Positions 22,532 to 43,412 of a DNA stretch of 64,000 nt are shown piece by piece. Source of the DNA: Candidatus Fermentibacterota bacterium (GTDB taxonomy: Bacteria > Fermentibacterota > Fermentibacteria > Fermentibacterales > Fermentibacteraceae). Both the position numbers and the translations under genes were made by a program. How positions within the stretch are numbered: position 1 is the first letter of the stretch; each line of letters starts with the position of its first letter. The stretch spans positions 1,479,904 to 1,543,903 of the forward strand of contig OY970370.1 of assembly GCA_963718745.1 (NCBI GenBank), read 5' to 3'. Below the pieces are notes generated by a model. The model saw only the letters and a list, made by a program, of their open reading frames with translations, ran no database searches and was not told where the DNA came from.

Positions 22532-22551
22532 CGGTCCTGAGGGGGGATCTG

Positions 22552-22875
22552 ATGGCCGGGAGGAAGTCCTTTTCCTGCAGCCAGTGCGGCGGTCCGGACC
22601 TGGAGCGGTCGGGGGAGGGCAAGCTGCGCTGCTCCTACTGTGGCAGCCTCTACGGCTACAGCGTCAGAGGCCCGGCTGTGGTCATCCGGAAGGGTGCAAG
22701 CGTCGTCTTCGGCAGGAATGCAAAAGTGGTGATCAGGGGCGGTCTGGAGATAGAGGACGAGGCCGATGTACGGATGGACGGAGAGATAACCCTCCTCGAG
22801 CGGGCCCCGGAGGAGGACGTCACCGCGGCCAGACTGCGGCTCCTGGAGAGTGGGCGGGCGGACGGGGAATCCTGA
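22552..22875 (+). CDS. hypothetical zinc-ribbon protein (CxxC...CxxC)
   Basis: CSQCGG ... CSYCGS N-terminal pair. Confidence 0.4.
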   Translation: MAGRKSFSCSQCGGPDLERSGEGKLRCSYCGSLYGYSVRGPAVVIRKGASVVFGRNAKVVIRGGLEIEDEADVRMDGEITLLERAPEEDVTAARLRLLESGRADGES

Positions 22876-22918
22876 ACCGCCGGCTGCATGGGAATGGGTG
22901 AAGAGGAGAGCTGAAGCG

Positions 22919-23707
22919 ATGAAGGTTGTCGATCTCCCCGAGGACAGGAAGGATCTGTTCTGCCTCTGTCTCGAGGACTGGTCGGAGGAAGCCAGGGAAG
23001 CCGGCCCGCGGCGCCGCCAGTGGCTCGACCGCGGTCGCAGTCGTCTCGGGCTGCGAGCCATGCTCGCCATCGACGACTCGGGTATCGAGGGGGGGATGAT
23101 CCAGTACGGACCCATCGAGCACTCGCACGTCCATGGATCGGGCCTCTACTTCATCTACTGCATCCATGTGCACGGCTACAGACAGGGCCGGGGCGACTTC
23201 CGGAAGCGTGGGATGGGCGAGGCCCTGCTGGCGGCCGCCGAGGAGGACGCGCGCGGTCTGGGGGCGGGCGGCATGGCCGCATGGGGTGTCTCCCTGCCTT
23301 TCTGGATGAAGGCCTCGTGGTTCCGGAAGCATGGCTACCGGAAGGCTGACCGCCGGGGCATCTCGGTACTGCTCTGGAAGCCCTTTACGGACGGCGCAGA
23401 ACCTCCTCGATGGATTCCGAAGGCTTCGAAGCGCCCTGATCCCATCCCCGGGAAGGTCGTCGTCACTGCGTTCTCCAGCGGGTGGTGCATGGCGCAGAAC
23501 CTCGTCCTGGAGCGCGCCCGGCGTGCTGCTGCCGAGTTCGGCGACAAGGTCGCCTTCTGCGAGATCGACACGTCTTCGAGGGATGCCGTAGCCCTGTGGG
23601 GCATCTCCGACGCCGTCCTGGTGGATGGCAGGAATCTGCAGAAGGGCCCGCCGCCCAGCTACGAAGCGATCCGCAAGGCGATTGCACGGCGCGTCGCCAG
23701 GCTGTAG
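22919..23707 (+). CDS. GNAT-like acetyltransferase fused to thioredoxin-like C-terminal domain
   Basis: central ...GYRQGRGDFRKRGMGEALL GNAT motif-A-like; C-terminus VVVTAFSSGWCMAQN...ISDAVLVDG thioredoxin-fold-like; start at ATG 22919 after GAGGAGAG. Confidence 0.45.
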   Translation: MKVVDLPEDRKDLFCLCLEDWSEEAREAGPRRRQWLDRGRSRLGLRAMLAIDDSGIEGGMIQYGPIEHSHVHGSGLYFIYCIHVHGYRQGRGDFRKRGMGEALLAAAEEDARGLGAGGMAAWGVSLPFWMKASWFRKHGYRKADRRGISVLLWKPFTDGAEPPRWIPKASKRPDPIPGKVVVTAFSSGWCMAQNLVLERARRAAAEFGDKVAFCEIDTSSRDAVALWGISDAVLVDGRNLQKGPPPSYEAIRKAIARRVARL

Positions 23708-23923
23708 CCGTCCGTCCGGTTCCCATTGTAGGAGAACGCAACCCCGTTTGCAGTATCCATGCAGTTTGAACGTGACCGTGTCTTCCTGTGGTCCAGTCGA
23801 CCGGAGGAGCAGCAGATGGAAGCGCTGCAGGGTCGACCGATGCACTGGGGTCTGGTTGCCGGCACAAGTTGACATACTTCATCCACAGGGTGATTTTCAA
23901 TAGGAAAACACCGGAGGGGGGAC

Positions 23924-25132
23924 ATGAACGGACGGGGCATCGGGGTATTGCCGAAGATCGTTCTGTTATTTGTCATGGCGGGGACCGTCCATGCGCAGAC
24001 CGACGGCTCGATAGTCGCCTGGGGGAGCAACGGGTCCGGCCAGTGCGACGTTCCGCCGCCCAACGAGGGATTTGTCGACGTCTCCGCGGGATACTCCTTC
24101 ACGGTCGCCCTGAAGGATGACGGCACGGCGGTGGCCTGGGGCAGCAACAGCTTGGGCCAGTGCGACGTACCATTTCCGAACAACGGTTTTGTCGAACTGT
24201 CCTGTGGCGCTTTCCACACCCTGGCACTGAAGGCGGACAGCTCCATCGTCGCCTGGGGGTTCAATTCGAGCGGCCAGTGCAACATCCCGCTCCCGAACAG
24301 TGATTTCATCGCCGTGGCCGGAGGTGAGCAGTACAGCATGGCGCTCAGGGCCGACGGCACAATTGAGGCCTGGGGATCGAACAGTCATGGACAGCTGAAC
24401 ATACCCTCTCCCAACCAGGACTTCGTTGCCATTGCAGCCGGGATCAATCACTCCATGGGCCTGAAGGCGGACGGCTCCATCGTATGCTGGGGTAACAACA
24501 ACTACTACCAGTGCATGGTCCCCGACCCCAACACCGGTTTCGTCGCGATGGCCGCCGGAGGCAACCACAGCCTCGGCCTGAAGGCGGACAGCACCGTTAT
24601 TGCCTGGGGCAGCAACCAGTCCGGGGCTTGCGAAGTACCCGCCCCGAACCAGGATTTCACTGCTATCGACGCTGGAATCGGCCACAGTCTGGGCCTCAAG
24701 GCTGACGGGTCCATCGTGGCGTGGGGTTGGGACGAGTACGGCCAGAGCACCGTTCCCCAGCCAAGTCAGGATTTCACCGCGGTGGCAGCGGGCAGCACCC
24801 ACAGCCTTGGCCTGCACATATTCGAAACAGGAATAGAGGAAACCTCTCCCGGCATGACCGATCTTGCGATTCTCTCCGTTGCCCCGAATCCCTGCTGCCG
24901 CACCGCCTCGCTGATGCTCCGGATGCAGCAGCCCGGCAGCCTCCTGCTGGAGGTCTTCGACATGTCCGGAAGGCTCGTGGAGGAATCCGATCTCGGGGCA
25001 TTCCCCGCAGGCACTCACTCCTTGATGTGGACGGGAGTGGATGTCGGCGGCAGGCCCCTGTCACACGGCGTCTACATAATCCGCATCTCGTCGTCATCGC
25101 GGAGCGCAGCCGCCAGGGTGATGCTGCTGTAG
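23924..25132 (+). CDS. RCC1-repeat beta-propeller protein with T9SS C-terminal sorting domain
   Basis: 7 repeats G(S/T)IVAWG.N..GQC.VP.PN..F; CTD LEVFDMSGRLVE...GVYIIRI. Confidence 0.75.
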   Translation: MNGRGIGVLPKIVLLFVMAGTVHAQTDGSIVAWGSNGSGQCDVPPPNEGFVDVSAGYSFTVALKDDGTAVAWGSNSLGQCDVPFPNNGFVELSCGAFHTLALKADSSIVAWGFNSSGQCNIPLPNSDFIAVAGGEQYSMALRADGTIEAWGSNSHGQLNIPSPNQDFVAIAAGINHSMGLKADGSIVCWGNNNYYQCMVPDPNTGFVAMAAGGNHSLGLKADSTVIAWGSNQSGACEVPAPNQDFTAIDAGIGHSLGLKADGSIVAWGWDEYGQSTVPQPSQDFTAVAAGSTHSLGLHIFETGIEETSPGMTDLAILSVAPNPCCRTASLMLRMQQPGSLLLEVFDMSGRLVEESDLGAFPAGTHSLMWTGVDVGGRPLSHGVYIIRISSSSRSAAARVMLL

Positions 25133-30457: not shown

Positions 30458-32263
30458 CTACTCTACTACCGCGAACCTGCCGGTCGCCGAGCTTATGCCG
30501 GACATCACCCTGCATACATAGACCCCCGGAGCCAGGTCGCTGACCGTGAACTGCGGACTGCCCGCTTCGAGGATCATCTCCATGGAGTCGTACACCCGCC
30601 TGCCGGAGATGTCGAATATGCAGAGCCGGACCTGGGCCTGCGCCTCCAGGCAGAGCCTGATGACCGCGACGCCGCATGCGGGATTCGGGCTTACAGGGAG
30701 GAGGGTCACACCGCTGCCTCCCGGTTCGCCTGGCGCCATACCCTGCTGGTTCCAGGTCACCCACACCTCGTCCAGATAGGGCTCCGCTCCGGGGGCGGAT
30801 ATGTCGAGGAGAGCTCGATACTGGAACAGGCTGTCCCCTGGCGCAAGAATCTGCGAGAGGCGGAGCGGAGCTTCGAAGGGTTCCGACCATTCGCCCATCT
30901 GCAGGATGTCGTCCGATGCCCTCACCTGGAACACCAGCGAAGAGCCCGATGGGATCTCGGCGATGCAGTCGAGGACATCCCATTCCGGGGCCGCTCCGGT
31001 GTCCAGCACGCTGGACTCCAGGTAACCGGAGTTCTGGCGCCTGTCCCACCACGCAATCTCCGCCGCTCCCATTGCGGCGAAAACGGGATCTATCTCGCCG
31101 TCGCCATCCATGTCCGCTGCACAGACGGACATCGCACCGTCGAGAACAACGATCGAGTGACGTCTCCAGGACCCGTCGCTGTTCTCCCACCACACGACCT
31201 CGTCGGCAACGGCGGCGGCCCCGACCAAGTCCATGTCGCCGTCGCTGTCGAAGTCACCGGGGACTATCGAGACAGCTCCGTCGAAGTCCGTGTCCAATTC
31301 GTGTCCGGTCCAGCTTCCCGACCGCCCGTCCCACCAGCCGACCACGCCATCGATCGCGGCTGCGCCCAGGATGTCCATGCTCCCATCGCCGTCGATGTCG
31401 GCAGAGCTGGCGAAGTAGGCGCCATCGAAACCGGTTGCGATGTCCTCCATCGTCCAGGCGGTCCCTGTTCCATCGGTATTGTTCCACAAAGCGACGGCAT
31501 CCAGGTAGTAGGCCGTTCCGATGACGTCCAGGTCGCCGTCCGAATCCATGTCGGATGCACTCACGGACCATGCACCATCGAAGGATTCGCCTATGGTGTG
31601 CCTGGTCCACTCGATGGCGGAACCGTCAATGTTCTCCCACCATGCGATCTCGTCGGAATAGGCGGCCGCTCCGAGGATATCAAGGTCGCCATCGCCGTCG
31701 ACATCGCCCGTGCATACGGACCTCGCGCCGTCGAAGCCGCCGTCGATGACAAGGGCGGACCAGCTCTGTCCGAGTCCGTCCCCGTTCATCCACAGGGTGA
31801 TGTCGAAAGCCTCGAACTGTGTCTTCGAGGCGCCCAGCACGTCGATGTCCCCGTCACCCTCGATGTCGGCGGCCCAGACTGAGCTCGCCCCCGTGAACAG
31901 GGAATCGATGGAGTGCCTGTTCCACTCCGTGGCGGCCTCGTCGATCCTCTCCCACCAGGAGACCTCGCCGGTCTCCACCGAGGTGCCGACAAGGTCGATA
32001 TCGCCATCACCGTCGATGTCCGCCGGGAAGATGGAAGTCGCTCCGGCAAAGGTGTCGTCGACTACTATTGTGCTGGCCTGAAGACTGATGCCTATGAACC
32101 CGGGCACTTCCGCATAATCGATGCCGGAACTGAGGTAGAAGGTGTTTCTGAACTGCATGACCGGTCCGGAGATCCCTGGGCCGCCAGACCAGTCCGCCTG
32201 CACAGCAACATCCCCACTCGGCGCAGATGCAATAACCATCAGTACAACGAGAATCCGGTACAT
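30458..32263 (-). CDS. FG-GAP/VCBS beta-propeller protein with T9SS C-terminal sorting domain
   Basis: repeats D.DGDGD.D..G; signal peptide; CTD VRLCIFDISGRRVYD...GVYVCRV. Confidence 0.75.
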   Translation of the reverse strand: MYRILVVLMVIASAPSGDVAVQADWSGGPGISGPVMQFRNTFYLSSGIDYAEVPGFIGISLQASTIVVDDTFAGATSIFPADIDGDGDIDLVGTSVETGEVSWWERIDEAATEWNRHSIDSLFTGASSVWAADIEGDGDIDVLGASKTQFEAFDITLWMNGDGLGQSWSALVIDGGFDGARSVCTGDVDGDGDLDILGAAAYSDEIAWWENIDGSAIEWTRHTIGESFDGAWSVSASDMDSDGDLDVIGTAYYLDAVALWNNTDGTGTAWTMEDIATGFDGAYFASSADIDGDGSMDILGAAAIDGVVGWWDGRSGSWTGHELDTDFDGAVSIVPGDFDSDGDMDLVGAAAVADEVVWWENSDGSWRRHSIVVLDGAMSVCAADMDGDGEIDPVFAAMGAAEIAWWDRRQNSGYLESSVLDTGAAPEWDVLDCIAEIPSGSSLVFQVRASDDILQMGEWSEPFEAPLRLSQILAPGDSLFQYRALLDISAPGAEPYLDEVWVTWNQQGMAPGEPGGSGVTLLPVSPNPACGVAVIRLCLEAQAQVRLCIFDISGRRVYDSMEMILEAGSPQFTVSDLAPGVYVCRVMSGISSATGRFAVVE

Positions 32264-32826
32264 TCCGCACCTCCATCGATGTGATTCTGCCCTGAAACAG
32301 TATCTGAGTCAATGGCATCGATTTCGGACCGCAGACCATCCTGTTCCTGGAGCGTCGACCAGGCACGACCCTGAGATGTGGTGCAGGAGGGGTGGCAAAC
32401 CCGGGCATCTGACCGGCTGACACCGGATCCTCGTCATTTGTCTTCCGCCGATGCTCCCGGGGGGACCTCGGAAACAGCTCCAGGTCGGTGACATTCTCCA
32501 GGGTGACCGGATCAGCTGCATCTGGTGCAGGCTGTCAGGTAGTCCTGAGCGCCCGGGATTTGGTGATCCACGGCCACCCCTCACAGTCAGTGTGTTCCTG
32601 CGCCAATCGAGCGGAGCTACTTCACGAGGTCTTCCACGAAAGAATAAGTATTATCTCTAGAAGAGGCGATGGTTTCAGGAACTTCGAGAACTACAGACTG
32701 AGAGTGCGAGCACTGTGCTGCTAAACTGGACCAGTGCCCCTGTTAATGGTGTAGATCCTGCAGATCTACCTGATTGAGTGGTACACCGGCCTTTGGTCCA
32801 GTCGAACCAGCTCAGAGTCATCCTTC

Positions 32827-33111
32827 ATGCTGCGTATCCCCAGACCTGACATCAGGATAGCACAGCAGAAGACCCGCTGCTACCGCAACCCGGTCATCTT
32901 CGCGATGGAGCTCCAGGCCGAGATGAGCACGGACCATCTGACAAGGCAGCAGCTCGCGGACAGGCACGGGATCTCCCTCGACCGGGTGATCCAGTGGCTA
33001 GCTCTGCTCAAGCTTCCCCAGGCACAGCTCGAGGAGATCAAGGTGCTGGGGGATCACTGGGAGCATCGGGTCGTGACGGAGCGGGAGCTGCGGAGAAGAA
33101 GATCCAACTGA
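32827..33111 (+). CDS. small ParB-type HTH protein, cassette 1
   Basis: LTRQQLADRHGISLDRVIQWLALLKLPQAQLEEI matches ParB/Spo0J HTH (LT.EELA.R.G.S...V.N.LRLL.LP); paralogs at 34825 and 41345; true start uncertain (conserved core begins MELQAEM). Confidence 0.5.
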   Translation: MLRIPRPDIRIAQQKTRCYRNPVIFAMELQAEMSTDHLTRQQLADRHGISLDRVIQWLALLKLPQAQLEEIKVLGDHWEHRVVTERELRRRRSN

Positions 33112-33284
33112 CTCCGTGATGGAAGCCAGTCAACTCATTGATCTAGGACGGTATCTCTCCCAGTCGAAGAAACCAGTGCGGGTACTGTCTTCCCCTCTTC
33201 CTAGCTCCGGATCGTGTTTCGGATCAGAGGTTGCCTCGTCCGAGGCGGTGGGCTATCTCTTTGCATCATGACTGGAGGGTGTGA

Positions 33285-34562
33285 ATGAAGCCGTTGCTCG
33301 CACTCGCGCTCATCTTCTCCCTCTCCCATGCGGAAATCGAAGTGGCGGAGCTGTTCCGGGCCGAGACGCTGGAGGAGCTCGAAGCCGCCCTTGTCGATGG
33401 CTACCCGATGCCGTGGCTGGCTGAAGTCCTCGCCGACTCCACAATCCCCGAGGATGACCGCTACTGGCTGGACTGCAGGATGAGGGCAGTCATCGCCCAG
33501 GACATGCACCTGTTCTTCGACAGAAATGGTGATCCAGTTCACGTTGAGGCTGAATGGATCGCACCCGGCGAAGACTACTGGCGTGAGAACTTCATGGTAA
33601 ATGCAGATGGAGCCGAATCCCTGTACGACCGATCAGATCAGCCGACCAATGTAGTTTCTGAACCCGGTGTTCTGGTCGATCGCTTCGGAGAGGAGATCGG
33701 CGAGCTTGCGATGATACACCGGGGGGTCAGGTTGAGCAGGGATGCCAGCATCGGTGTTACCCTATCCGGACGACACAACGAACCCGGCTGCCCGGTAACA
33801 ATGCCGCGCCTGTGTTTTGCCTGCCTTCTCTTCCCCGATGGTTCCTTCAGGGAAACGCAAATCGGTTACGCTGGGTACTCCAATTTCGCGATCAGCAACG
33901 ATGGTAGCCGGATCGTCGTTGAGACTGAAGTCCCTCGAGATTCGGATCTCGGAGAGGCGTACACCGGGTTGGTCTTCCTGCTCGATCGGGAAGGAAGCAT
34001 CGTAGCCCGTTTCCCGATGGCGGACGGGATCATGGGTGGAGCGCCTGCTGTCTCGGCTACCGGCAGATACGTGGCGTGCAGACAGAACTCGATACCCGAA
34101 AGAGGGGTCTTCCTCCTCGATGGGGAAACTGGTCAACTCCTCTATCGATTCAGAGAAGACGTGGTCGGGCACGACTTAACGTTTTCTCCCAACGAACAGT
34201 ATCTGTGCATCGGAGGTCTCTATAGGCCAGTAGTCTTCGACTGTCTTGATCGTGAGGAGATATGGTCTGTTACCCCCTCCGATCTTGATGTTGACGAGCC
34301 TGTTCTTCGCCCTGGCTATTGTGCAGATGATGGGCAAACGTTTGTGTTCAGTTCACTACAAACTCACCCGATGCGTTTCGGTACGATGATCTTCAGAGGA
34401 GACAGTCGCCCTATTGAATGGGATTCTACTAGAGGGGTCATCCAGGTATCCCCTAACGGCGCTTGCACCTTCGCTCAGTGCTACGATGCGGTAGAGCCCA
34501 ACTCCTGGAACGACTTCCTGTGCGTTCCAGTGATCGTGAACCAGCTCGAAGGTGGTGAGTAG
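33285..34562 (+). CDS. secreted PD40/TolB-like beta-propeller protein, cassette 1 (conserved N-domain, variable C-region)
   Basis: RBS GGAGGGTG; signal peptide MKPLLALALIFSLSHA; first ~90 aa near-identical to 35742 and 41860 paralogs. Confidence 0.7.
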   Translation: MKPLLALALIFSLSHAEIEVAELFRAETLEELEAALVDGYPMPWLAEVLADSTIPEDDRYWLDCRMRAVIAQDMHLFFDRNGDPVHVEAEWIAPGEDYWRENFMVNADGAESLYDRSDQPTNVVSEPGVLVDRFGEEIGELAMIHRGVRLSRDASIGVTLSGRHNEPGCPVTMPRLCFACLLFPDGSFRETQIGYAGYSNFAISNDGSRIVVETEVPRDSDLGEAYTGLVFLLDREGSIVARFPMADGIMGGAPAVSATGRYVACRQNSIPERGVFLLDGETGQLLYRFREDVVGHDLTFSPNEQYLCIGGLYRPVVFDCLDREEIWSVTPSDLDVDEPVLRPGYCADDGQTFVFSSLQTHPMRFGTMIFRGDSRPIEWDSTRGVIQVSPNGACTFAQCYDAVEPNSWNDFLCVPVIVNQLEGGE

Positions 34563-34565
34563 AGG

Positions 34566-34745
34566 ATGAAGACGACCATCATCGCTCTCGTTCTATGCGG
34601 AACTGCCTTCTGCATCCCCTGCCACTGGGTGCGACTCCCGATGCCCAGGACTCGACGCACACGATCATGCCCGTCTACGGCGATTAACACGCTCCATTCG
34701 GAATCGACCTGACGGACAGACCCATCAGGTGTCGACGATCCGCTT
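34566..34745 (+). pseudogene. degraded 5' remnant of a paralog of the 37061 large surface-protein gene
   Basis: MKTTIIALVLCGTAFC... aligns to 43079 remnant but with indels/frameshifts; THT..H.YGDY..PFGIDLTD similarity to N-terminus of 37061 protein lost to frameshift. Confidence 0.4.
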
Positions 34746-34824
34746 GTCAGCTTGGACCAGTGCCCCACTTAATGGCGGAGAACCAGAACCTAAATCCCTG
34801 TATGGCAACTATTTGTAAGGAATA

Positions 34825-35160
34825 ATGTGGTACACCGGCCTTTGCTCCAGTCGAACCAGCTCAGGGCCATCCTTCATACTGCGTATCCCGAGACCTGACA
34901 TCAGGATAGCCCCGCCCAGGACCCGTCTCTACCGCAACCCGGTCATCCTCTCGATGGAGCTCCAGGCCGAGATGAGTACGGACCAACTCACGAGGCAGCA
35001 GCTGGCCGATAGACACGGGATCTCCCTCGATCGTGTGATCCAGTGGCTGGCCCTGCTGAAGCTGCCCGAGACGAAGATCAAGGAGATCGTGGCGCTGGGA
35101 GACTACTGGGAGCGGCGTCTTGTGACGGAGAGGGAGCTGCGGAGAAAGAGAACCAACTGA
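34825..35160 (+). CDS. small ParB-type HTH protein, cassette 2
   Basis: paralog of 32827 and 41345 (MELQAEMSTDQLTRQQLADRHGISLDRVIQWLALLKLPETKIKEI). Confidence 0.5.
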   Translation: MWYTGLCSSRTSSGPSFILRIPRPDIRIAPPRTRLYRNPVILSMELQAEMSTDQLTRQQLADRHGISLDRVIQWLALLKLPETKIKEIVALGDYWERRLVTERELRRKRTN

Positions 35161-35572
35161 CTCCGTGACGGAAGCCAGTCATCTCTTTGATGTAGGACGG
35201 CATCTCTCCCAGTCGAAGAAACAAGACGTTTCCTTCGGATTGTTGCAGCACGAGCGCAAGTCTGTTTTATACCTGTCTTCGTATACGAAATTCACCATCT
35301 CAGCACAGTTGGATGAAATGCGGAATTGGGAGTGCGTATCCTTCAGTGGCATGCCGCTTCTCTAGCCTTCCTGTGTGGTGTTGTAAATGTAGACAAGGTA
35401 AAATTTTATCTGGACTCTGCGACCGCGCTGGGTCAAAGACTCGAAGCAGTCTATCTTGCATGACGGCCCTTGACGCGGATACATGAGTGAATGAGCATAC
35501 CCCTGTCTTGTCTGACATGCTCGAAGGAGAGTGCGTGAGACGGCACGAAAACAGCATCATCCATGAAAGCGC

Positions 35573-35642
35573 CTACCTACCTACCTACCTACCTACCTAC
35601 CTACCTACCTACCTACCTACCTACCTACCTACCTACCTACCT
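35573..35642. repeat. tetranucleotide simple-sequence repeat (CTAC/TACC)x~17
   Basis: 70 nt of perfect CTAC units ~100 bp upstream of the 35742 start; single TACC in equivalent position of cassettes 1 and 3. Confidence 0.9.
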
Positions 35643-35741
35643 GTCTTCCCCTCTTACTAGTTCCGGATCGTATCCAGCATCTGTGTTTGCCTCGAAGGAG
35701 GCCATGGGGTATCTCTGTACAGACGGACCTGGAGGGTATGA

Positions 35742-37061
35742 ATGAAAGCATTTCTCGCCCTGGCAGTTCTCTTCTCCCTCTCCCATGCAGACATCGAAGT
35801 GACGGAGCTGTTCCGGGCGGAGACGCCCGCCGAGCTCGAAGCTGCCCTTGTCGACGGCTACCCGATGCCATGGCTGGCTGAGGTCCTCGCAGACTCCACC
35901 ATCCCGGAGGAGGACCGCTACTGGCTGGACTGCCGGATGAGAGCGGCGATTGCCCGCGATCTCAACCTCTTCTTCGATCGGGACGGGAACCGTGTCGAGG
36001 TCGAGTGTGACTATATGCATCCGGGTGAGAGCTACTGGCGCGAGCACTTCATCGTGAATCCTCTCGGCGAGTCGTTCCGATACGACACTCAAGATCGCCC
36101 TGCTGACGTTCCATACCTGGAGATGGAGGCGCAGCCGGGGTACATCCTGAACTTGTACGGTGAACGAGTGGGAGACATCGCTATCACCCGCGACAGGGTG
36201 TGGCTGTCGCGGGACGCCTCGGTGGGGATCTTCAGGACTGGTAATACCGATGGAATCAGCTACAATCGTGCCTGCTTCCTGTACCCCGACGGATCGTTCC
36301 GGGAGCAGCCGATTGATCCGGTGTTCGTCCAGTACGCTCTGAGCCAGGACGGGAATGTAGCTGTATTCTGCTCAAGATCGCAACATGTGCCTGAAGAGAG
36401 AAACCAGGAGGAATGGGAGTGGATGGTGTATGCCTTCGACCATGAAGGCGATCTCATTTTCGAGAAACTCGCACCATATGATCCGCTATCTGGTTCGGCT
36501 ACGCCAGCGATCTCGCCGGACAGCCGGTATATAGCTATCCCCTTCGGGACAGGCTCTGTCTGGTTGCTCGATGCTCGTACCGGAGATGTGATCCATATGT
36601 GGGGTGGGACTCCTGAAAACATGGTTAGCGGGAGCAACCTCTACTTCACACAGGACAGCAGATACCTTTGTGCCGGTAGCGTGATGGTCTTCGACTGCGA
36701 GACAGGAGAACGGATTCTCAAGGTCGGCACAAGCGCGCCGTACACACAGACTTCCGAAGGCTTCCTAGAGAGAGGGCGCAACACTTGTATGGCCAGCAAC
36801 GGAGCTAGGCTGGTTAGCAACATCTTCTGGACGAACTTCCGCCCAATCGAATTTGCCCCTTACATTTACACTTCGACTGTCGAGCTGCGGGACCAGAATG
36901 CCAACCTGTTCTATTCGGAATCGTGCGACTGGCTGCCGTTCATGTCGCCGAACGGAGAATTCCTCTTAGGGGAGAAGTACAATTCCCTCTTCTTCGGAGG
37001 TTCTGGATCAGACGCTTCGTCCACTCCGCTTGCGATCATGCGCCTCCTGGAGGTGGAGTAA
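35742..37061 (+). CDS. secreted PD40-like beta-propeller protein, cassette 2
   Basis: RBS GGAGGGTATGA; signal peptide MKAFLALAVLFSLSHA; 5' ~270 nt near-identical to 41860 copy; stop overlaps start of 37061 gene (TAATG). Confidence 0.7.
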   Translation: MKAFLALAVLFSLSHADIEVTELFRAETPAELEAALVDGYPMPWLAEVLADSTIPEEDRYWLDCRMRAAIARDLNLFFDRDGNRVEVECDYMHPGESYWREHFIVNPLGESFRYDTQDRPADVPYLEMEAQPGYILNLYGERVGDIAITRDRVWLSRDASVGIFRTGNTDGISYNRACFLYPDGSFREQPIDPVFVQYALSQDGNVAVFCSRSQHVPEERNQEEWEWMVYAFDHEGDLIFEKLAPYDPLSGSATPAISPDSRYIAIPFGTGSVWLLDARTGDVIHMWGGTPENMVSGSNLYFTQDSRYLCAGSVMVFDCETGERILKVGTSAPYTQTSEGFLERGRNTCMASNGARLVSNIFWTNFRPIEFAPYIYTSTVELRDQNANLFYSESCDWLPFMSPNGEFLLGEKYNSLFFGGSGSDASSTPLAIMRLLEVE

Positions 37062-40000
37062 TGAAACTGTTCTATGCACTCACCACAGCGGCGCTGATCT
37101 TCTCTGCTTCAGCCTTCGCCACTGATCCCGTGATTTGGCCGATGAGCCCTCAGGGAGGGACTCATACACTCTTCCACAGCTTTGGAGACTACCATACGCC
37201 ATGGATGAATGCATGTGCCGACTCAACGAATTTCCACTTCGGCATCGACCTCACCGATCCGACGCCCTCGGCTGTCGATGATGCTGCTGAAGCAGTCTAT
37301 AGCGTGCGTACCGGATATGTGCGAGATGTGTTCTATCCCGAAGGAGTAACCCCTGATGCCCCGATGGCGCACGACAACTATGGGATCGTGATCTGCGACG
37401 AGTACCAGCAGCAGACCGGTTTCGGCTGGTGCCTCCAGCACATTGAGGACTACCTGTACACCGGAGGGGGCTTGGAAAACAACCCCTGGTCGCCAGACAG
37501 TATGTACACTAACAACTTCTTCGTTGAAACGGCACGTCTTGGCGACATCGACAACGATGCCTTCAGCCAGGGTGGCGCCACCTGGACTGACGATCACCTG
37601 CACTTCATGAGAAGCGCCTACACATACAATCCCGCACATCCAGGATACCTAAACCCTCTCTTCTATCTCGACCCTGCGCCGGTCGAGGGCAGCAGTCCCT
37701 TCTTCGACTGGTCATGGGATAGCGGGACTGGAATTCCCTACGGGTTCTTCGTGATCCCTCAGTACTCGGCTCTTAACGACTGGGAAACCGAGTGGGCGAC
37801 ACCTGCTGCGTGCAAGAGCGAGATTGACTCATTCGAGAGCATAATCAGCGGAGCTGTCGATCTGGTTCTTTTGATGCATGTGGAAGGTGAAGGTGTAACG
37901 GGAAGCACTCCTCCCTTCAGCTGCATGCCGCAGCGACTGGAGTGGTGGGTGGAGAGATGGGACGCATCCACGAACGCCTGGGTTGAGGTCGAGGACATCA
38001 ACGGAATCCCGTATCACAGATATCCTTTCGACTTCGGGGATATCGAGCTGGGAGGCTCCTCGGACTGGGAGCGGTACAAGCAGATCTATTTCAGGTTCGA
38101 TGCTTTCGACTTTTTCAGTAGTGCCTCTGCAGGGAGCATGTGCTGCCTCACGAACTGCAGTGATAATGATTCTTGGGACGGTATAGAGAACATCGAGGAG
38201 AACTGGTGGCAGACCAACGTCGATAAGGAGCAGGTCGGACCGACGATTGTGGCGGAGGAGATGCTGTTTCCTGATGGGCAGTACAGGATTGCAATCAGGC
38301 CCTGGGTATTCAATGGAACGACACCAGTCGCACTGACTCCGGCCTATGCGCTTGTCGATCTTCACAACAGCAGCCCGGTCGCGCATGCGGCCGAGATTCT
38401 GAGCCCTGCGAAGGGCACGATTTGGTCAGCGCACTGGGAGGCTGTGGAGGTCGTCGACGGTCTTGAGGTCGAGTTCGTCGTCCAGGAGGATGAGCCCGTA
38501 GAGGCAGGGCAGACGCTGGCAGCGACGATCGTGTTTTCGGAGCCGATGAACACCGCGTCGGGAAGCTATTCGATAACGGCTGGCAAGGCTCCGGATTATG
38601 ACGATCTGGAGGTCACGACTACGGGTTGGAGTTGCACTAACAACCCTGCACCGTACTACGATACCTGGTCAGGAACGATCGAGGTCCCCGAGACAGGGAT
38701 ATCGGGGAGGATCATCCTGCGTATCGAAGCAGAGGATACTGATGGCAACTGCTTGAAGGATCCCGCGGATGCCTTCCCGTCGGATGACGAGTATTCCGAT
38801 CTCTACCATGGCTTCGGGATAGCGTTTGGTGCGGAGCCTGGGTGGAGTGCAACGCTCCACGGTGGAGTCTATGGTTCTCCGTGTCTTGGGGATCTCGACG
38901 GCGATGGGGACCTGGACGTGGTTATCCAGAGCAAGGATGGGTGGATCAACTGCCTGGACGACACCGGGGCGCAGTTCAGCGGTTGGCCTCAGAATGGCGG
39001 CTGGGTGCCTTCTTGGACGAAGACATACAGCTCGGTTTCACTATCCGATCTGGATCAGGACGGATCACTCGAAATCCTTGCGACCAATCCCTATGGATGC
39101 AGGGCATACGAACTGGACGGGACGTATACCAGCTATCTCAATTCGAACTACTCTCACTTCAGCAAGGCATCACCTGCTGTGGGCGACGTAGACGGTGACG
39201 ATTTGCTGGAAGTCGTGCTCGGCCGGGTGGATGACGGGCAGGGCTCGGCCATGCCGTCAGTAATCTGCCTGGAGAACGACCTTACATTGAAGTGGACGAA
39301 GCTCTACTCGGGGCTGTTCGGAGAGATGCCGATACTGGCGACACCTGCTGTCGGTGACATCTCGAGCAGCCACACGGGTAACGAGATAGCAATTGCGACA
39401 GGGCAGGATTTCATCGAGGGTTATCCTTACCTGGAGACTGACACGGGGTATCCCAACTGGGTCCGACTTCTCGACGGTTCGGGGAACACGCTCTGGACGT
39501 CGGCGGACTACCTGTGCCAGTTCTGGGCGTCGCCGGTGGTGGGAGACATCGACGGGGACGAGATAAACGAGGTGGTAATAGGAAGCACCACCAACTGGGA
39601 CGACGGGAAGAAGGTGTTCGTGCTTAACGGGAACACCGGGGCGCTTGAACACACATGGACCGTTGGCAACTGGGTACTGCATCCGGCGGCACTCGCCGAT
39701 CTTGACGATGACGGCGTGCTTGATGTGATCGTGGCCTGCAACGACCACAAGGTGTACGCCTGGTCGGGCGACACTCATCAAGCCTTGTCAGGATATCCGG
39801 TGGATCTCGGATCACTAGTAGGAAGTCCTTCGGTGGCTGACATAGATGGCGACTTTGACCTTGAGGTTGTGGTAGGCACGTCGGCAGGAGAGCTTTGGGC
39901 GTTGAATCCAGATGGATCGACCTGCACAGGATTCCCGGTAGCTGATGGGACCTATTTCAGAGGGTCACCTGCGATGGGCGATCTGGATGGAGACGGGTGC

Positions 40001-41185
40001 CTGGAGGTTCTGATCGCCGACCAGACTGATGCAACCGCGTACTGCTACGACATGGGCTCGGGTTCGTTCCCGTGCGAGATGCCGTGGCGTCAGTTCCAGC
40101 ATGATTCGTGGCACAGCGGGTGCTTCGAGGCGGATAACACGGTACCTGAGGCTCCGACGGATCTGGACGCGATAGTGACGTACAACGAGTACGGCTACAC
40201 AGCAGACCTGACATGGGACCTGTCGGTGAATGATCCGTACTCGCCCGATCCGGAGGATCCTGCGGATGTTGTCAGTTACCAGATCTACAGGGCGTTTCCT
40301 CCGAGTACGTACACGATCCTCAGCCGCAGTCATGCGGGTGAGGGATACTACACGGACGAGTGCCCCGACCCGCAGGGCACGGTGGTCAGATATGTGGTTA
40401 CCGCCTCCGACGGGACGAACGAGTCGGAGTACAGCAACGAGGTGAGGTTCAGGACGGTGCCTGGGCTTAACCTCGCGGCCGGCTGCCATGTGACCGAGGA
40501 GCTGACCAGCGGAGTACGCACCAGTGTTGAGGTATCTGCTGGCTCGCACGGCATGGCGAGGATCAGTGATACCGGATCCATGTCGACGGCAGGTACTGCA
40601 ACCGGAGCGAAGCTCCTCACGGACGGAGAGACGGAAGACGTCTACATCCCCGGTGCCGGTGTGCGGGCTGTCGTGATAGACCTGGGCTGCAGCTGCCTCA
40701 TCGGGCAGGTTGATCTGATGGAGGCACGCGCTGAGGCGTCTGCCTCGATGGCCGATCCTTCGGTGATCGAGGTATCGGCCGACGGGACGGCCTGGGCGGC
40801 GCTGGGCGCGCAGAGGGCGACTGCCGGAACGGCGGGCAGATATGTCAGGATAAGCCCTGCGCCGATCACGTCCGAGGTCTTCGTCTGGGGTAACTGGACA
40901 GCGGAAGAGGATGAAGAGTCAGTGATCGGCATGGAGAGGATCGATGGCCGCTGGAACCTCGAGATGCCCGTGCTTGACGATGCTTCCTCGGGAGAGATCG
41001 GAACCTTGAGTTTGTATGACGTAACGGGTCGCGTTCTGAGGAGCTGGAGCGCCCGCCCGGGCGAGGAAGTGGACTGGGACGGCCGGACGGCATCAGGCAT
41101 GCAGGTCACTCCCGGCTGCTACTTCGTTCGCTATGAGCAGGGCGGTGAAGCCGTCACGAGGAGGCTCCTGGTAACTGCGGAGTAG
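37061..41185 (+). CDS. large surface protein: N-terminal M23-like domain (HFGID...HLH), FG-GAP repeats, FN3-like domain, T9SS C-terminal sorting domain
   Basis: 1375 aa from ATG 37061 (signal peptide MKLFYALTTAALIFSASAFA); >=8 D.DGDG FG-GAP repeats; CTD LSLYDVTGRVLRS...GCYFVRY. Confidence 0.8.
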   Translation: MKLFYALTTAALIFSASAFATDPVIWPMSPQGGTHTLFHSFGDYHTPWMNACADSTNFHFGIDLTDPTPSAVDDAAEAVYSVRTGYVRDVFYPEGVTPDAPMAHDNYGIVICDEYQQQTGFGWCLQHIEDYLYTGGGLENNPWSPDSMYTNNFFVETARLGDIDNDAFSQGGATWTDDHLHFMRSAYTYNPAHPGYLNPLFYLDPAPVEGSSPFFDWSWDSGTGIPYGFFVIPQYSALNDWETEWATPAACKSEIDSFESIISGAVDLVLLMHVEGEGVTGSTPPFSCMPQRLEWWVERWDASTNAWVEVEDINGIPYHRYPFDFGDIELGGSSDWERYKQIYFRFDAFDFFSSASAGSMCCLTNCSDNDSWDGIENIEENWWQTNVDKEQVGPTIVAEEMLFPDGQYRIAIRPWVFNGTTPVALTPAYALVDLHNSSPVAHAAEILSPAKGTIWSAHWEAVEVVDGLEVEFVVQEDEPVEAGQTLAATIVFSEPMNTASGSYSITAGKAPDYDDLEVTTTGWSCTNNPAPYYDTWSGTIEVPETGISGRIILRIEAEDTDGNCLKDPADAFPSDDEYSDLYHGFGIAFGAEPGWSATLHGGVYGSPCLGDLDGDGDLDVVIQSKDGWINCLDDTGAQFSGWPQNGGWVPSWTKTYSSVSLSDLDQDGSLEILATNPYGCRAYELDGTYTSYLNSNYSHFSKASPAVGDVDGDDLLEVVLGRVDDGQGSAMPSVICLENDLTLKWTKLYSGLFGEMPILATPAVGDISSSHTGNEIAIATGQDFIEGYPYLETDTGYPNWVRLLDGSGNTLWTSADYLCQFWASPVVGDIDGDEINEVVIGSTTNWDDGKKVFVLNGNTGALEHTWTVGNWVLHPAALADLDDDGVLDVIVACNDHKVYAWSGDTHQALSGYPVDLGSLVGSPSVADIDGDFDLEVVVGTSAGELWALNPDGSTCTGFPVADGTYFRGSPAMGDLDGDGCLEVLIADQTDATAYCYDMGSGSFPCEMPWRQFQHDSWHSGCFEADNTVPEAPTDLDAIVTYNEYGYTADLTWDLSVNDPYSPDPEDPADVVSYQIYRAFPPSTYTILSRSHAGEGYYTDECPDPQGTVVRYVVTASDGTNESEYSNEVRFRTVPGLNLAAGCHVTEELTSGVRTSVEVSAGSHGMARISDTGSMSTAGTATGAKLLTDGETEDVYIPGAGVRAVVIDLGCSCLIGQVDLMEARAEASASMADPSVIEVSADGTAWAALGAQRATAGTAGRYVRISPAPITSEVFVWGNWTAEEDEESVIGMERIDGRWNLEMPVLDDASSGEIGTLSLYDVTGRVLRSWSARPGEEVDWDGRTASGMQVTPGCYFVRYEQGGEAVTRRLLVTAE

Positions 41186-41217
41186 AACAGACAGAACGGG
41201 TGAAGACCCGCAATAAC

Positions 41218-41243
41218 AGCCGGGCGGCCTTCGGGCCGCCCGG
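41218..41243 (+). terminator. GC hairpin GCCGGGCGGCC-TTCG-GGCCGCCCGGC downstream of large gene (no U-tract)
   Basis: 11-bp stem with UUCG tetraloop 33 nt after stop. Confidence 0.35.
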
Positions 41244-41344
41244 CCTGCATCAGGGAAATCCCGGAGAGAAAGGCTCAGCACGAAAGCCGGCGTGTTCAGC
41301 CAAGGCAAGATCATTCTTACTGGCTGTCTGGCAACAACATATAT

Positions 41345-41716
41345 ATGATTTGCTGGTACACCGGCCTTTGGTCCAGTCGAACCAGCTCAGGGTCATCCTT
41401 CATGCTGCGTATCCCGAGACCTGACATCAGGATAGCACAGCAGAAGACCCGCTGTTACCGCAATCCGGTCATCTTCGCGATGGAGCTCGAGGCCGAGATG
41501 AGCACGGACCAACTGACCAGGCGGCAGCTCGCGGATCGACACGGGATCTCCCTCGACCGGCTGATCCAGTGGCTGGCTCTGCTGAAGCTGCCGACGGAAC
41601 AGCTCGAGGAGATCGCCGCTCTGGGGGATTACTCGGGAAAGCCGGTGGTTACGGAGAGGGAGTTGAGGAGAAGAAGATCCAACCGTCTCCGTGATGGAAG
41701 CCAGTCAACTCATTGA
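41345..41716 (+). CDS. small ParB-type HTH protein, cassette 3
   Basis: paralog of 32827 and 34825. Confidence 0.5.
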   Translation: MICWYTGLWSSRTSSGSSFMLRIPRPDIRIAQQKTRCYRNPVIFAMELEAEMSTDQLTRRQLADRHGISLDRLIQWLALLKLPTEQLEEIAALGDYSGKPVVTERELRRRRSNRLRDGSQSTH

Positions 41717-41859
41717 TCTAGGACGGGATCTTTCCCAGTCGAAGAAACCAGTGCGGGTCCTGTCTTGCACTCTTCCTAGCTCCGGATCGTGTCCAGCATC
41801 GTGATTGCCTCGACGGAGGCCATGGGGTATCTCTGTACAGACGGACCTGGAGGGTATGA

Positions 41860-43077
41860 ATGAAAGCATTTCTCGCCCTGGCAGTTCTCTTCTCCCTCTC
41901 CCATGCAGACATCGAAGTGACGGAGCTGTTCCGAGCGGAGACGCCCGCCGAGCTCGAAGCTGCACTCGTCGACGGCTACCCGATGCCGTGGCTGGCTGAG
42001 GTCCTCGCAGACCCCTCGATCCCCGAGGAGGACCGCTACTGGCTGGACTGCAGGATGAGGGCGGTCATCGCCCAGGACCTGCACCTGTTCTTCGACGAGG
42101 AAGGTAGTCCTGTACGGATTGATGCCGACTGGATCTGGCCTGGGGAGGACTACTGGCGTGAATGTTTCAGCATCAACAGGGACGGGGTTGATGACCCATT
42201 CGATGTGTCAAATCAACCCACCGGCAATTGGGGAGGTCAGGGCTACGTATCTGACAGATACGGAAACAACCTCGGACCTCTCGCTATCTGTCCAATTCCG
42301 AGGTACAACTCATGCATGTCCCGCGACGGATCTGTATCGATCACGCTTAGCGGTATACAGGACAATAACTTCGGGCCCGGACTCATGAACCTGTGCTTTC
42401 TAGGGGAAGACGGCAGTTTCAGCGAATTCCAATTGCATGGATGGTTCACCAAGTATGCGATGAGTCAGAGTGGTAATCTGGTCGTTGCATCATGTTACGA
42501 CAGACGGCGTGAAGTGGCCAGAGACCAACGAATACACCGTATCCTTGTATTCGATGGAGAAGGAAGTCTCCTTTACGAACTGAACCAGCCTGACTCACCG
42601 CACTTTGAACAGGGTTCGCCACTGATCTCGCCAGATGACCGATACATAGCGATTCCTTTCCGTGGATCAAGACCGATGGTTCTTCTCGACGCCGCTTCTG
42701 GAGAGGAGCTTCACGTATGGCCCGACATGCTGGGAGCGACCAAGCATTTCTCAGCCAATTCGAGGTATCTGAGCTTCTGCAACACATCATCGGGGATGGT
42801 CGTGGATTGCATATCGGGTGAAGTCGTATGGAGAGGCTATGACGGGGTAAGAGAGATCTTTTCTTCCAATGACGGTCGACTCGTCTGCTGGATGGGAGAA
42901 GGTTCCTGGACCAACCTCGTGGATCTGGAAGAGGGTATCTCCATCGACAGCATCTGCCAGGGAAGACCGACTCTGTCTCCGAATGCGTTCTTCCTAATCG
43001 CACAGAGAAGCGTGTCTGGCAGCCTGATCCCTGACGACCTCTCGTTCTTCGCCGCCCGCATCGAAGCAGGTGAGTAG
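41860..43077 (+). CDS. secreted PD40-like beta-propeller protein, cassette 3
   Basis: signal peptide MKAFLALAVLFSLSHA; conserved N-domain then divergent repeats (ISPDDRYIAIPF..., FSANSRYLSF...). Confidence 0.7.
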   Translation: MKAFLALAVLFSLSHADIEVTELFRAETPAELEAALVDGYPMPWLAEVLADPSIPEEDRYWLDCRMRAVIAQDLHLFFDEEGSPVRIDADWIWPGEDYWRECFSINRDGVDDPFDVSNQPTGNWGGQGYVSDRYGNNLGPLAICPIPRYNSCMSRDGSVSITLSGIQDNNFGPGLMNLCFLGEDGSFSEFQLHGWFTKYAMSQSGNLVVASCYDRRREVARDQRIHRILVFDGEGSLLYELNQPDSPHFEQGSPLISPDDRYIAIPFRGSRPMVLLDAASGEELHVWPDMLGATKHFSANSRYLSFCNTSSGMVVDCISGEVVWRGYDGVREIFSSNDGRLVCWMGEGSWTNLVDLEEGISIDSICQGRPTLSPNAFFLIAQRSVSGSLIPDDLSFFAARIEAGE

Positions 43078-43078
43078 G

Positions 43079-43335
43079 ATGAAGACGACCATCATCGCTC
43101 TCGCTCTATGCGGAACTGCCTTCTGCTTTCCCTGGCCGCTGGGTGCGTCTCCCGATGCCCAGGACTCTACGCACACGATCATGCACGTCTACGGCGACTA
43201 TCACACTCCATTCGGAATCGACCTGACGGACAGACCCATCGGGTGTCGACGATCCGCGTGTCAGCTTGGACCAGTGCCCCAGTTAATGGCAAAGAACCTA
43301 AATCCCTGTATGGCAACAAGTTGTAAGGAATTTTG
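43079..43335 (+). pseudogene. 5' remnant (signal peptide + ~60 aa) of a paralog of the 37061 large-protein gene, truncated at the tRNA junction
   Basis: MKTTIIALALCGTAFCFPWPLGASPDAQDSTHTIMHVYGDYHTPFGIDLTD... similar to N-terminus of 37061 protein; ORF runs into tRNA sequence. Confidence 0.4.
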
Positions 43336-43412
43336 TGGTACGCCCGCCAGGAGTTGAACCCGGAACCTTCTGGTCCGTAGCCAGACGCTCTATCCAGTTG
43401 AGCTACGGGCGC
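43336..43412 (-). tRNA. tRNA-Arg (anticodon ACG)
   Basis: 77 nt GCGCCCGTAGCTCAACTGGATAGAGCGTCTGGCTACGGACCAGAAGGTTCCGGGTTCAACTCCTGGCGGGCGTACCA folds into cloverleaf; anticodon loop CUACGGA; encoded CCA. Confidence 0.8.

Follow-up and report, generated by a model that had tools for sequence, protein, structure and literature searches.

In Neisseria, the opa genes form a multicopy surface-protein family with conserved 5′ ends, in which copies recombine with each other and repeat tracts modulate expression. These tracts are CTCTT repeats within the coding sequence of the leader peptide, and short loops make up what varies in the proteins. In case of nadA from the same genus, a (TAAA)n tract lies upstream of the promoter. 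The bab outer-membrane-protein paralogs of Helicobacter pylori (babA/babB/babC) combine an N-terminal homology region with a type-specific variable middle region; intragenomic gene conversion at the 5′ end, ~60-240 bp from the start codon, yields chimeras and carries a simple-sequence repeat of one paralog's 5′ region to the others (PMC4552749). Here, we describe three tandem genes, termed A, B and C, which encode secreted beta-propeller proteins in a member of the Fermentibacterota (Hyd24-12), an uncultured phylum that is abundant in anaerobic digesters (PMC5030696). The window analysed is the complete stretch of 64,000 nucleotides (nt) from contig OY970370.1 (assembly GCA_963718745.1, positions 1,479,904 to 1,543,903), and all coordinates refer to it.

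We conclude, with a probability of roughly 0.85, that A, B and C are ancient duplicates whose 5′ module has been homogenised by segmental gene conversion between the tandem copies. This module comprises a small helix-turn-helix (HTH) gene, a putative promoter with the 5′ untranslated region (5′UTR), the signal peptide and the conserved N-domain. Conversion is supported by identity at synonymous and non-coding sites, by a reversal of tree topology, by mosaic patches and by comparison with a sister strain.

Divergence along the three paralogs

The paralogs are arranged as a direct tandem array, and each opens with a Sec-type signal peptide (MKAFLALAVLFSLSHA|DIEV...) that is followed by the N-domain of ~90 residues and a fast-evolving propeller. 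An earlier interpretation of the window, the sequence-only reading, had placed the same signal peptide and N-domain in three genes, and here gene positions and quoted sequence agree exactly with our data, all on the plus strand. It had further described a near-identical 5′ part of ~270 nt in all three genes, a virtual identity of B and C until about codon 90, and unalignable sequence beyond. The drop in identity is real, whereas its extent has to be corrected.

The nucleotide identity of B and C amounts to 99-96% for the first ~45 codons, 95% for codons 1-67 and 63% for codons 68-100; synonymous divergence (dS) rises from 0.19 to 2.40 at the same point. Near-identity of this pair is thus confirmed, but the break is located at codon 67-78. 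A reaches only 86% nucleotide identity to B and to C in codons 1-67, with an A/B dS of 0.54 that is followed by saturation, and the A/C tract extends at 77% to about codon 100. In the other direction, the tract inside the genes is part of a longer one: B and C share 92% identity in the 100 nt before their start codons, and similarity continues for ~500 nt upstream through the 5′UTR and the HTH gene. Past residue 105, protein identity among the three is 35-39%, and an end-to-end alignment is possible, with many insertions and deletions (indels) along the whole length. The term unalignable hence holds for the DNA, where BLASTN between the propeller-coding parts gave no match, but not for the proteins.

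A step in protein identity is seen throughout the family. Among 123 proteins, the family consensus fraction amounts to 0.84-0.87 for residues 31-75, 0.67-0.72 up to about residue 105 and 0.22-0.58 thereafter. Homologs from other genera that are just 46% identical still match the N-domain stretch by BLASTN at 68-74%. The step alone is therefore no evidence of recombination, and the sharp transition that had been taken to indicate it carries weight at synonymous and non-coding sites, not at the amino-acid level. The extreme conservation of the N-domain across the family speaks for an explanation without any recombination, namely strong purifying selection on signal peptide and N-domain after an ancient duplication. 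However, third codon positions of B and C are 90% identical in the 5′ tract and 39% downstream, and between lineages the value is 58-67%. The 92% identity of the 5′UTR also stands against selection alone, as does the signal peptide, which is poorly conserved across the family (consensus fraction 0.35) yet 100% identical between B and C. Synonymous-site and non-coding data already contradict this explanation, and we regard it as highly improbable.

Within the module, affinities between the copies change along the sequence. A resembles C over the small open reading frame (ORF) element and again over codons 55-100; in between, starting in the 5′UTR and extending to about codon 50, it is B that equals C. 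In the youngest conversion tract (Table 1), B and C agree at 40 of the 49 informative sites and show 100% identity over ~100 nt. The longest run of B/C agreement covers 25 consecutive informative sites, compared with a maximum of 12 in 5000 permutations (p<0.0002), and the number of runs is 84 where 112 ± 6 are expected. Informative sites are thus clustered far beyond chance.

Orthologs, phylogeny and sister strains

The propellers of the array have closer orthologs in other species than at home, which identifies A, B and C as ancient paralogs. The B propeller protein is 82-89% identical to P0017-P0020 of other species, and the A propeller protein 70-81% identical to P0021/P0029. Two further orthologs allow a comparison along the genes: A_L005 is 69% identical to A in the propeller, and B_L050 is 83% identical to B in the propeller but only 85% identical at the nucleotide level in codons 1-67. 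For B and B_L050, dS is 0.67 in codons 1-67 and 0.56 downstream. In view of the B/C value of 0.19, the 5′ tract of B and C is younger than the species split, whereas the propellers are older.

This is in good agreement with neighbour-joining (NJ) trees, evaluated with 1000 bootstraps. The 5′ region (-82 to +201) yields the groups {B, C, C_L001, X_L008} and {A_L005, B_L050, D_L051}, each with 100% support. From residue 68 to the end, B joins B_L050, A joins A_L005 and C joins C_L001, again with 100% each, and the lineage groups receive 0%. The 5′ tract groups by genome lineage and the remainder by propeller type, and both splits are mutually exclusive. Selection alone does not accommodate such a reversal at full bootstrap support.

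A contig of a sister strain (L001) provides a view on a shorter time scale. Its C propeller region is 98-100% identical to the window per 100 nt, while the module is 77-88% identical; a difference of 12-23% in the module next to a nearly invariant propeller is a further point against selection alone. A second contig, L008, carries a module of the copy-2 type, including the segment with the CCTA repeat described below (89.5% over 1144 nt). There, the module is located in front of another propeller type, X (28% identity).

The ortholog data also bear on a recent tandem duplication followed by very fast divergence, or by targeted hypermutation of the propeller as in a diversity-generating retroelement (DGR). 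The tandem arrangement would fit such a history, and so would the L002 pair, in which identical 5′ ends precede a more diverged remainder. But the orthologs elsewhere are far closer (82-89% for B, 70-81% for A) than the neighbours in the array (35-39%), indels occur along the full length, and downstream dS is high as well as nonsynonymous divergence (dN). Self-comparison found no second copy of any propeller segment in the region, and hence no template repeat of a DGR (reverse transcriptase was not searched for window-wide). We consider a recent duplication very unlikely.

With the dS step, the upstream identity, the tree reversal at about codon 67, the mosaic patches and the sister strain, the mosaic or gene-conversion signature proposed by the sequence-only reading is well founded. 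Its addition that recombination acted rather than ancient duplication has to be dropped, since the propellers themselves are ancient paralogs.

Recurrence in other Fermentibacteria genomes

Shared 5′ tracts in front of divergent propellers are not limited to this genome. Between L016 and L033, 97% identity extends from 359 nt in front of the DRYW codon to 40 nt behind it, next to propellers at 35%; L015 and L038 are 90% identical from -611 to +131; L019 and L023 are 93% identical in a tract that is cut by a contig edge. In the tandem pairs of L009/L002 and L026, dS equals 0 over the first ~100 codons and then rises to 0.4-1.6. As background, pairs from different genomes with equally divergent propellers show a third-position identity of 46 ± 10%.

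Right ends of the tracts range from codon ~71 to ~102 in five genome pairs, and left ends from ~120 to ~510 nt upstream of the start codon. Such variable ends point to homologous, not site-specific, recombination. The tracts end where the propeller-coding DNA begins. Homologous recombination would repeatedly replace the 5′ module in one copy by the module from a different copy. Under purifying selection, the N-domain would retain enough DNA identity to seed the exchanges, which would begin in the N-domain or in the upstream element, and the propeller DNA would be too diverged for strand exchange, so that the tracts stop there. The outcome would be one common module for expression, export and docking in all paralogs, next to diverging propellers.

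Several points weigh against gene conversion as the general explanation. In GLR63 and concoct47, N-domain subtypes track propeller subfamilies, which means that homogenisation is local and occasional and not genome-wide. Paralog A is 85-87% identical to every 5′ tract compared, those of other species included (dS about 0.5), and is not clearly homogenised with B and C; being equally distant from all tracts, it took part in its last exchange long ago or received its tract from an unsampled donor. Both the RecA-dependent mechanism and the selective reason are what we infer from the pattern. In addition, L005, L050 and L051 originate from different samples, and their assignment to a single species is deduced from ~90% identity of the 5′ tract. 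Finally, L001, L008, L016 and L033 are metagenome contigs, in which chimeras among paralogous modules may occur.

The last point leads to the question whether collapsed or mis-joined repeats could have created the pattern, given that the comparison loci are metagenome contigs. For the window, the three copies are located on one contig (reported as 2,522,402 bp) and differ by 5-15%, each with copy-specific indels, unlike what collapse or duplication errors produce. An assembly artefact is exceedingly unlikely.

Layout of the array and its 5′ module

Self-comparison delimits the module as three direct copies of ~820 nt, which include the first 67-100 codons of the propeller gene (Table 1). The modules of A and C (32771-33586 and 41346-42161) are 85.8% identical over 818 nt by BLASTN. 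Copy 2 consists of two pieces, 34828-35225 and 35640-36059, parted by a segment that the other copies do not have; the second piece is also delimited more narrowly, as 35640-35977.

Table 1. Features of the array in window coordinates.
Feature	Coordinates	Strand	Remarks
Small-ORF element, copy 1	32779..33176	+	starts TGGTACACCGGCC; 126-nt leader; 68-aa (amino acids) HTH ORF 32905-33111
Promoter (putative)/5′UTR, copy 1	33185..33284	+	alignment of 8 loci
Paralog A	33285..34562	+	425 aa; signal peptide, conserved N-domain, A-type beta-propeller (predicted)
Remnant 1	34566..34827	+	decayed 5′ end of large partner gene; signal peptide to FGIDLTD, internal deletion; plus junction
Small-ORF element, copy 2	34828..35225	+	ORF 34954-35160
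Copy-2-only segment	35226..35640	+	415 nt; ends in (CCTA)17 at 35572-35639
Promoter (putative)/5′UTR, copy 2	35641..35741	+	92% identical to copy 3, 76% to copy 1
Youngest conversion tract, B side	35652..35942	+	5′UTR to codon 67; C partner 41770-42060
Paralog B	35742..37061	+	439 aa; B-type propeller; stop codon overlaps start of partner gene
Partner gene	37061..41185	+	1374-aa FG-GAP repeat protein; only intact partner; start overlaps stop of B
Small-ORF element, copy 3	41354..41751	+	ORF 41480-41716; usual stop lost, 78 aa
Promoter (putative)/5′UTR, copy 3	41759..41859	+	alignment of 8 loci
Paralog C	41860..43077	+	405 aa; C-type propeller
Remnant 2	43079..43335	+	decayed 5′ end of C-type partner gene
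tRNA-Arg(ACG)	43336..43412	-	right border of low-GC array; ARAGORN and Rfam

The left junction of the small-ORF elements, TGGTACACCGGCC, is sharp and identical in all copies. With dN/dS values of 0.15-0.28, the small ORF evolves as a real gene. Its product (68-78 aa) shows a weak match to HTH_ParB under the Pfam cut-off and may be a regulator. Only 39 homologs were found, essentially all in metagenome-assembled genomes of Fermentibacter-like digester bacteria. In the sister strain, the small HTH gene is also located 5′ of other genes for secreted proteins or proteins of the type IX secretion system type (T9SS; L001 3-218, L008 1-105), and the phylogeny of the element is itself reticulate among the copies.

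The small ORF is preceded by a leader of 126 nt (32779-32904, 34828-34953, 41354-41479) that is 88-97% identical among the copies. Its dN about equals its dS (0.11-0.16), and it is more conserved than the synonymous sites of the small ORF; thus, the leader is probably a conserved non-coding element. It has no Rfam match, and in a scan of 32-44 kb at E≤1 the tRNA was the sole match. Folding of the 5′UTRs and the leader gave no convincing structure, the best candidate being on the minus strand (z = -2.6).

Alignment of 8 loci reveals four conserved items in the ~100-nt 5′UTR: GGATCGT, TTGCCT-N17-TATCTC, a GCCTC..GAGGC hairpin and a GGAGGG ribosome-binding site (RBS). The region around TTGCCT-N17-TATCTC is a putative promoter, judged from its conservation in the alignment. 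A scan for the sigma-70 consensus and for terminators returned nothing useful in the module and did not list this putative promoter.

The segment specific to copy 2 brings a perfect (CCTA)17 tract to ~100 nt upstream of the start codon of B, the only such repeat in the 64 kb. CCTA tracts precede family genes at an equivalent position in L008 of a sister strain (4760-4803, n=11) and, in another species, in L005 (9870-9901, n=8) and L051 (795-818, n=6), where L005/6/7 are identical strains and likewise L051-53. The window and the homologous L008 module differ in repeat number (17 versus 11) and by ~10% elsewhere. The (CCTA)n tract belongs to one version of the 5′ module, and we propose it as a candidate phase-variation tract.

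The neighbourhood of the array is rich in surface proteins. The flanks (20840-25132 and 30458-32263) encode more secreted repeat or propeller proteins with T9SS-type tails, in the architectures SBBP with Por_Secre_tail, RCC1 with FlgD_ig and FG-GAP with Por_Secre_tail.

Partner gene and remnants

The gene behind B encodes a protein with FG-GAP repeats (Pfam FG-GAP_3, 3.9e-19), weak matches to FlgD_ig and to Por_Secre_tail (NCBIfam), and hence a weak T9SS-type C-terminal sorting domain. A propeller gene directly followed by an FG-GAP gene of ~1400 aa is also found in L003, L005 and L051. The C-terminal GGE/VE codons of the propeller genes (GGTGGTGAG or GGTGAG, followed by the stop) double as RBS of the partner gene, whose start lies 0-3 nt past the propeller stop or overlaps it (34548-34568, 37047-37063, 43063-43081). 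The C-terminal ...GGE is conserved family-wide. An RBS inside these codons, together with an adjoining or overlapping start, indicates translational coupling.

A and C are each trailed only by a remnant, which leaves one intact FG-GAP partner for three propeller genes. Both remnants (each ~260 nt) derive from a C-type partner gene, carry the same internal deletion and are part of a second repeat, 34546-34840 versus 43061-43348, with 90% identity; the sequence-only reading had missed this repeat. An intact version of the remnant gene exists in L001, directly behind C, and in P0166. Recombination between direct repeats probably produced the deletions that left both remnants. The direct repeats thus imply structural instability, as seen in the two remnants here as opposed to the intact partner behind C in L001, to which loss mediated by an insertion sequence (IS) can be added: at L050 1488-2605, an IS3-family transposase (rve, HTH_Tnp_1) replaces the first ~1000 codons of the partner behind the B-type ortholog.

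For the N-terminus of the partner (37061-37700), a relation to M23 peptidases was considered because of the motifs NFHFGIDL and DHLHFMRS (HxxxD/HxH-like) and found no support. A phmmer search of the PDB gave nothing, Pfam at E≤10 gave nothing relevant, and AlphaFold with an alignment of 8 sequences yielded no usable model (pLDDT, predicted local distance difference test, 36).

The tRNA border and base composition

The array abuts a tRNA-Arg gene, and this raises the possibility of site-specific cassettes or tandem integrative elements at the tRNA, with the shared module as the element end. Every small-ORF element begins exactly at TGGTACACCGGCC (32779, 34828, 41354), which matches the 3′ 13 nt of the tRNA (TGGTACGCCCGCC, 43336-43348) at 11/13 positions, and the homology between the junction from A to module 2 and the junction from C to the tRNA ends exactly at this match. 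The presence of the element in front of further genes for secreted proteins in the sister strain and the composition of the 11-kb array (GC content 0.55-0.58 versus ~0.64 in the flanks, with lower GC at third codon positions, GC3) would fit as well. However, the similarity to the tRNA is limited to the 13 nt and not significant as a local alignment (p = 0.15), and no tRNA adjoins any of 14 related loci. Pfam detected no integrase, resolvase, invertase or transposase domain in the genes of the array (33.3-43.1 kb) or its immediate neighbours (30.5-32.3 and 43.5-44.4 kb), nor recombinase-type domains in the flanking ORFs examined (~20.8-30.4 and ~44.4-47.3 kb). Inverted repeats of ≥30 nt are absent from 32.0-44.5 kb, and on their right side, the shared tracts end at variable positions within coding sequence. 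Cassette exchange in the site-specific sense, as suggested by the sequence-only reading, is not borne out, and integration at the tRNA is improbable. The 13-nt match could stem from an old att site; a microhomology left where a duplication or deletion was joined appears to be the better reading.

The GC content of the window agrees with the ~64% of Ca. Fermentibacter daniensis (PMC5030696). Low GC3 characterises the propellers of the family as a whole. In every family gene of both species (the window paralogs plus L005, L050, L051, L001 and L008), GC3 steps from 0.75-0.88 in codons 1-67 to 0.49-0.68 in the propeller; flanking genes range from 0.79 to 0.96. A comparison of the paralogs of both species gave 0.78-0.84 and 0.58-0.67 for the two parts. 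The idea of the propeller cassettes as foreign DNA, based on low GC3, is weakened by this recurrence in every paralog and both species. A step at the break is compatible with GC-biased conversion or with differing selection regimes.

The protein family

The family is confined to the Fermentibacterota (Aegiribacteria, Sabulitectum, Fermentibacter / Hyd24-12), with 128 matches in a set of 5.8 billion proteins; among GTDB species representatives, it has 41 loci, none of them outside the phylum. An exhaustive phmmer search of 1.84 billion representatives found the N-domain in only 58 clusters. Most of these are proteins of ~400-480 aa in which the domain is close to the N-terminus; the others are shorter entries, one protein of 546 aa and one of 894 aa with an internal domain, and a few matches at chance level. 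A modularity of the polymorphic-toxin type was considered as well and rejected, as the search pointed to no fusion of the N-domain to an unrelated C-terminal domain (C-terminal regions of the newly retrieved proteins were left uninspected).

The propeller proteins score below the cut-off of every Pfam and NCBIfam model, PD40 being among the sub-threshold Pfam hits. Structure prediction, which had been proposed for N-domain and propeller along with the earlier interpretation, gave a confident AlphaFold2 model from a 58-sequence alignment (pLDDT 88, predicted template-modelling (TM) score pTM 0.88), in which N-domain and beta-propeller are continuous. According to the model, an alpha/beta N-domain (residues 17-107) is followed by a multi-bladed propeller with ~28 predicted beta-strands after residue 128. 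Foldseek against the PDB retrieved generic WD40 propellers with E about 1e-11 and TM-scores of only 0.4-0.5. The predicted fold is a WD40/PD40-like beta-propeller.

Comparison with known systems

The findings define a two-gene surface module, a propeller and an FG-GAP giant, in which constraint falls on the N-domain, which probably binds the partner or a machinery, and diversification on the propeller. The locus is also a cautionary case: domain conservation would explain the step at the amino-acid level, and the recombination becomes visible only through synonymous and non-coding sites in combination with orthologs of other species.

As a tentative and rather unlikely extension, the array may be a contingency system of a free-living uncultured anaerobe. 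Gene conversion would move an expression, export and docking module among 'specificity' cassettes with deeply divergent propellers, and a hypermutable (CCTA)n upstream of the promoter would come with one version of this module. All cassettes would dock via the shared N-domain onto the single remaining FG-GAP surface partner, and the population would switch the displayed propeller, e.g., in response to phage or predators; the control circuit would include the small HTH protein and the 126-nt leader. The candidate tract can be checked in existing long-read metagenomes of digesters.

The variable surface-protein repertoires of pathogens are typically marked by concerted evolution that is limited to promoter, leader and first domain. 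Here, the known process is found in a new, unannotated protein family and a new phylum, with a clean reversal of the tree from species to type. The bab paralogs of H. pylori are the closest counterpart. As in bab, the tract spans the leader and the first domain, and the repeat is tied to one version of the 5′ module. Unlike the Hop-family porin-like adhesins of bab, the proteins are secreted beta-propellers; there is no conserved 3′ homology region, and the copies form a tandem array instead of being dispersed. The repeat is located upstream of the putative promoter and not inside the coding sequence, and its role in phase variation is that of a candidate known from sequence data, in comparison with bab. 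The carrier is a free-living bacterium of anaerobic digesters, whereas bab belongs to a host-restricted pathogen.

With nadA, the locus shares a tetranucleotide tract upstream of a promoter, here a putative one. In contrast to opa, a whole domain varies and the repeat, again a genomic observation, lies outside the leader-peptide coding region. As in PD40/WD40 propellers, an N-terminal alpha/beta domain is predicted to precede a multi-bladed propeller; the family differs from these in that no Pfam or NCBIfam model recognises it at cut-off and in its TM-scores of 0.4-0.5.

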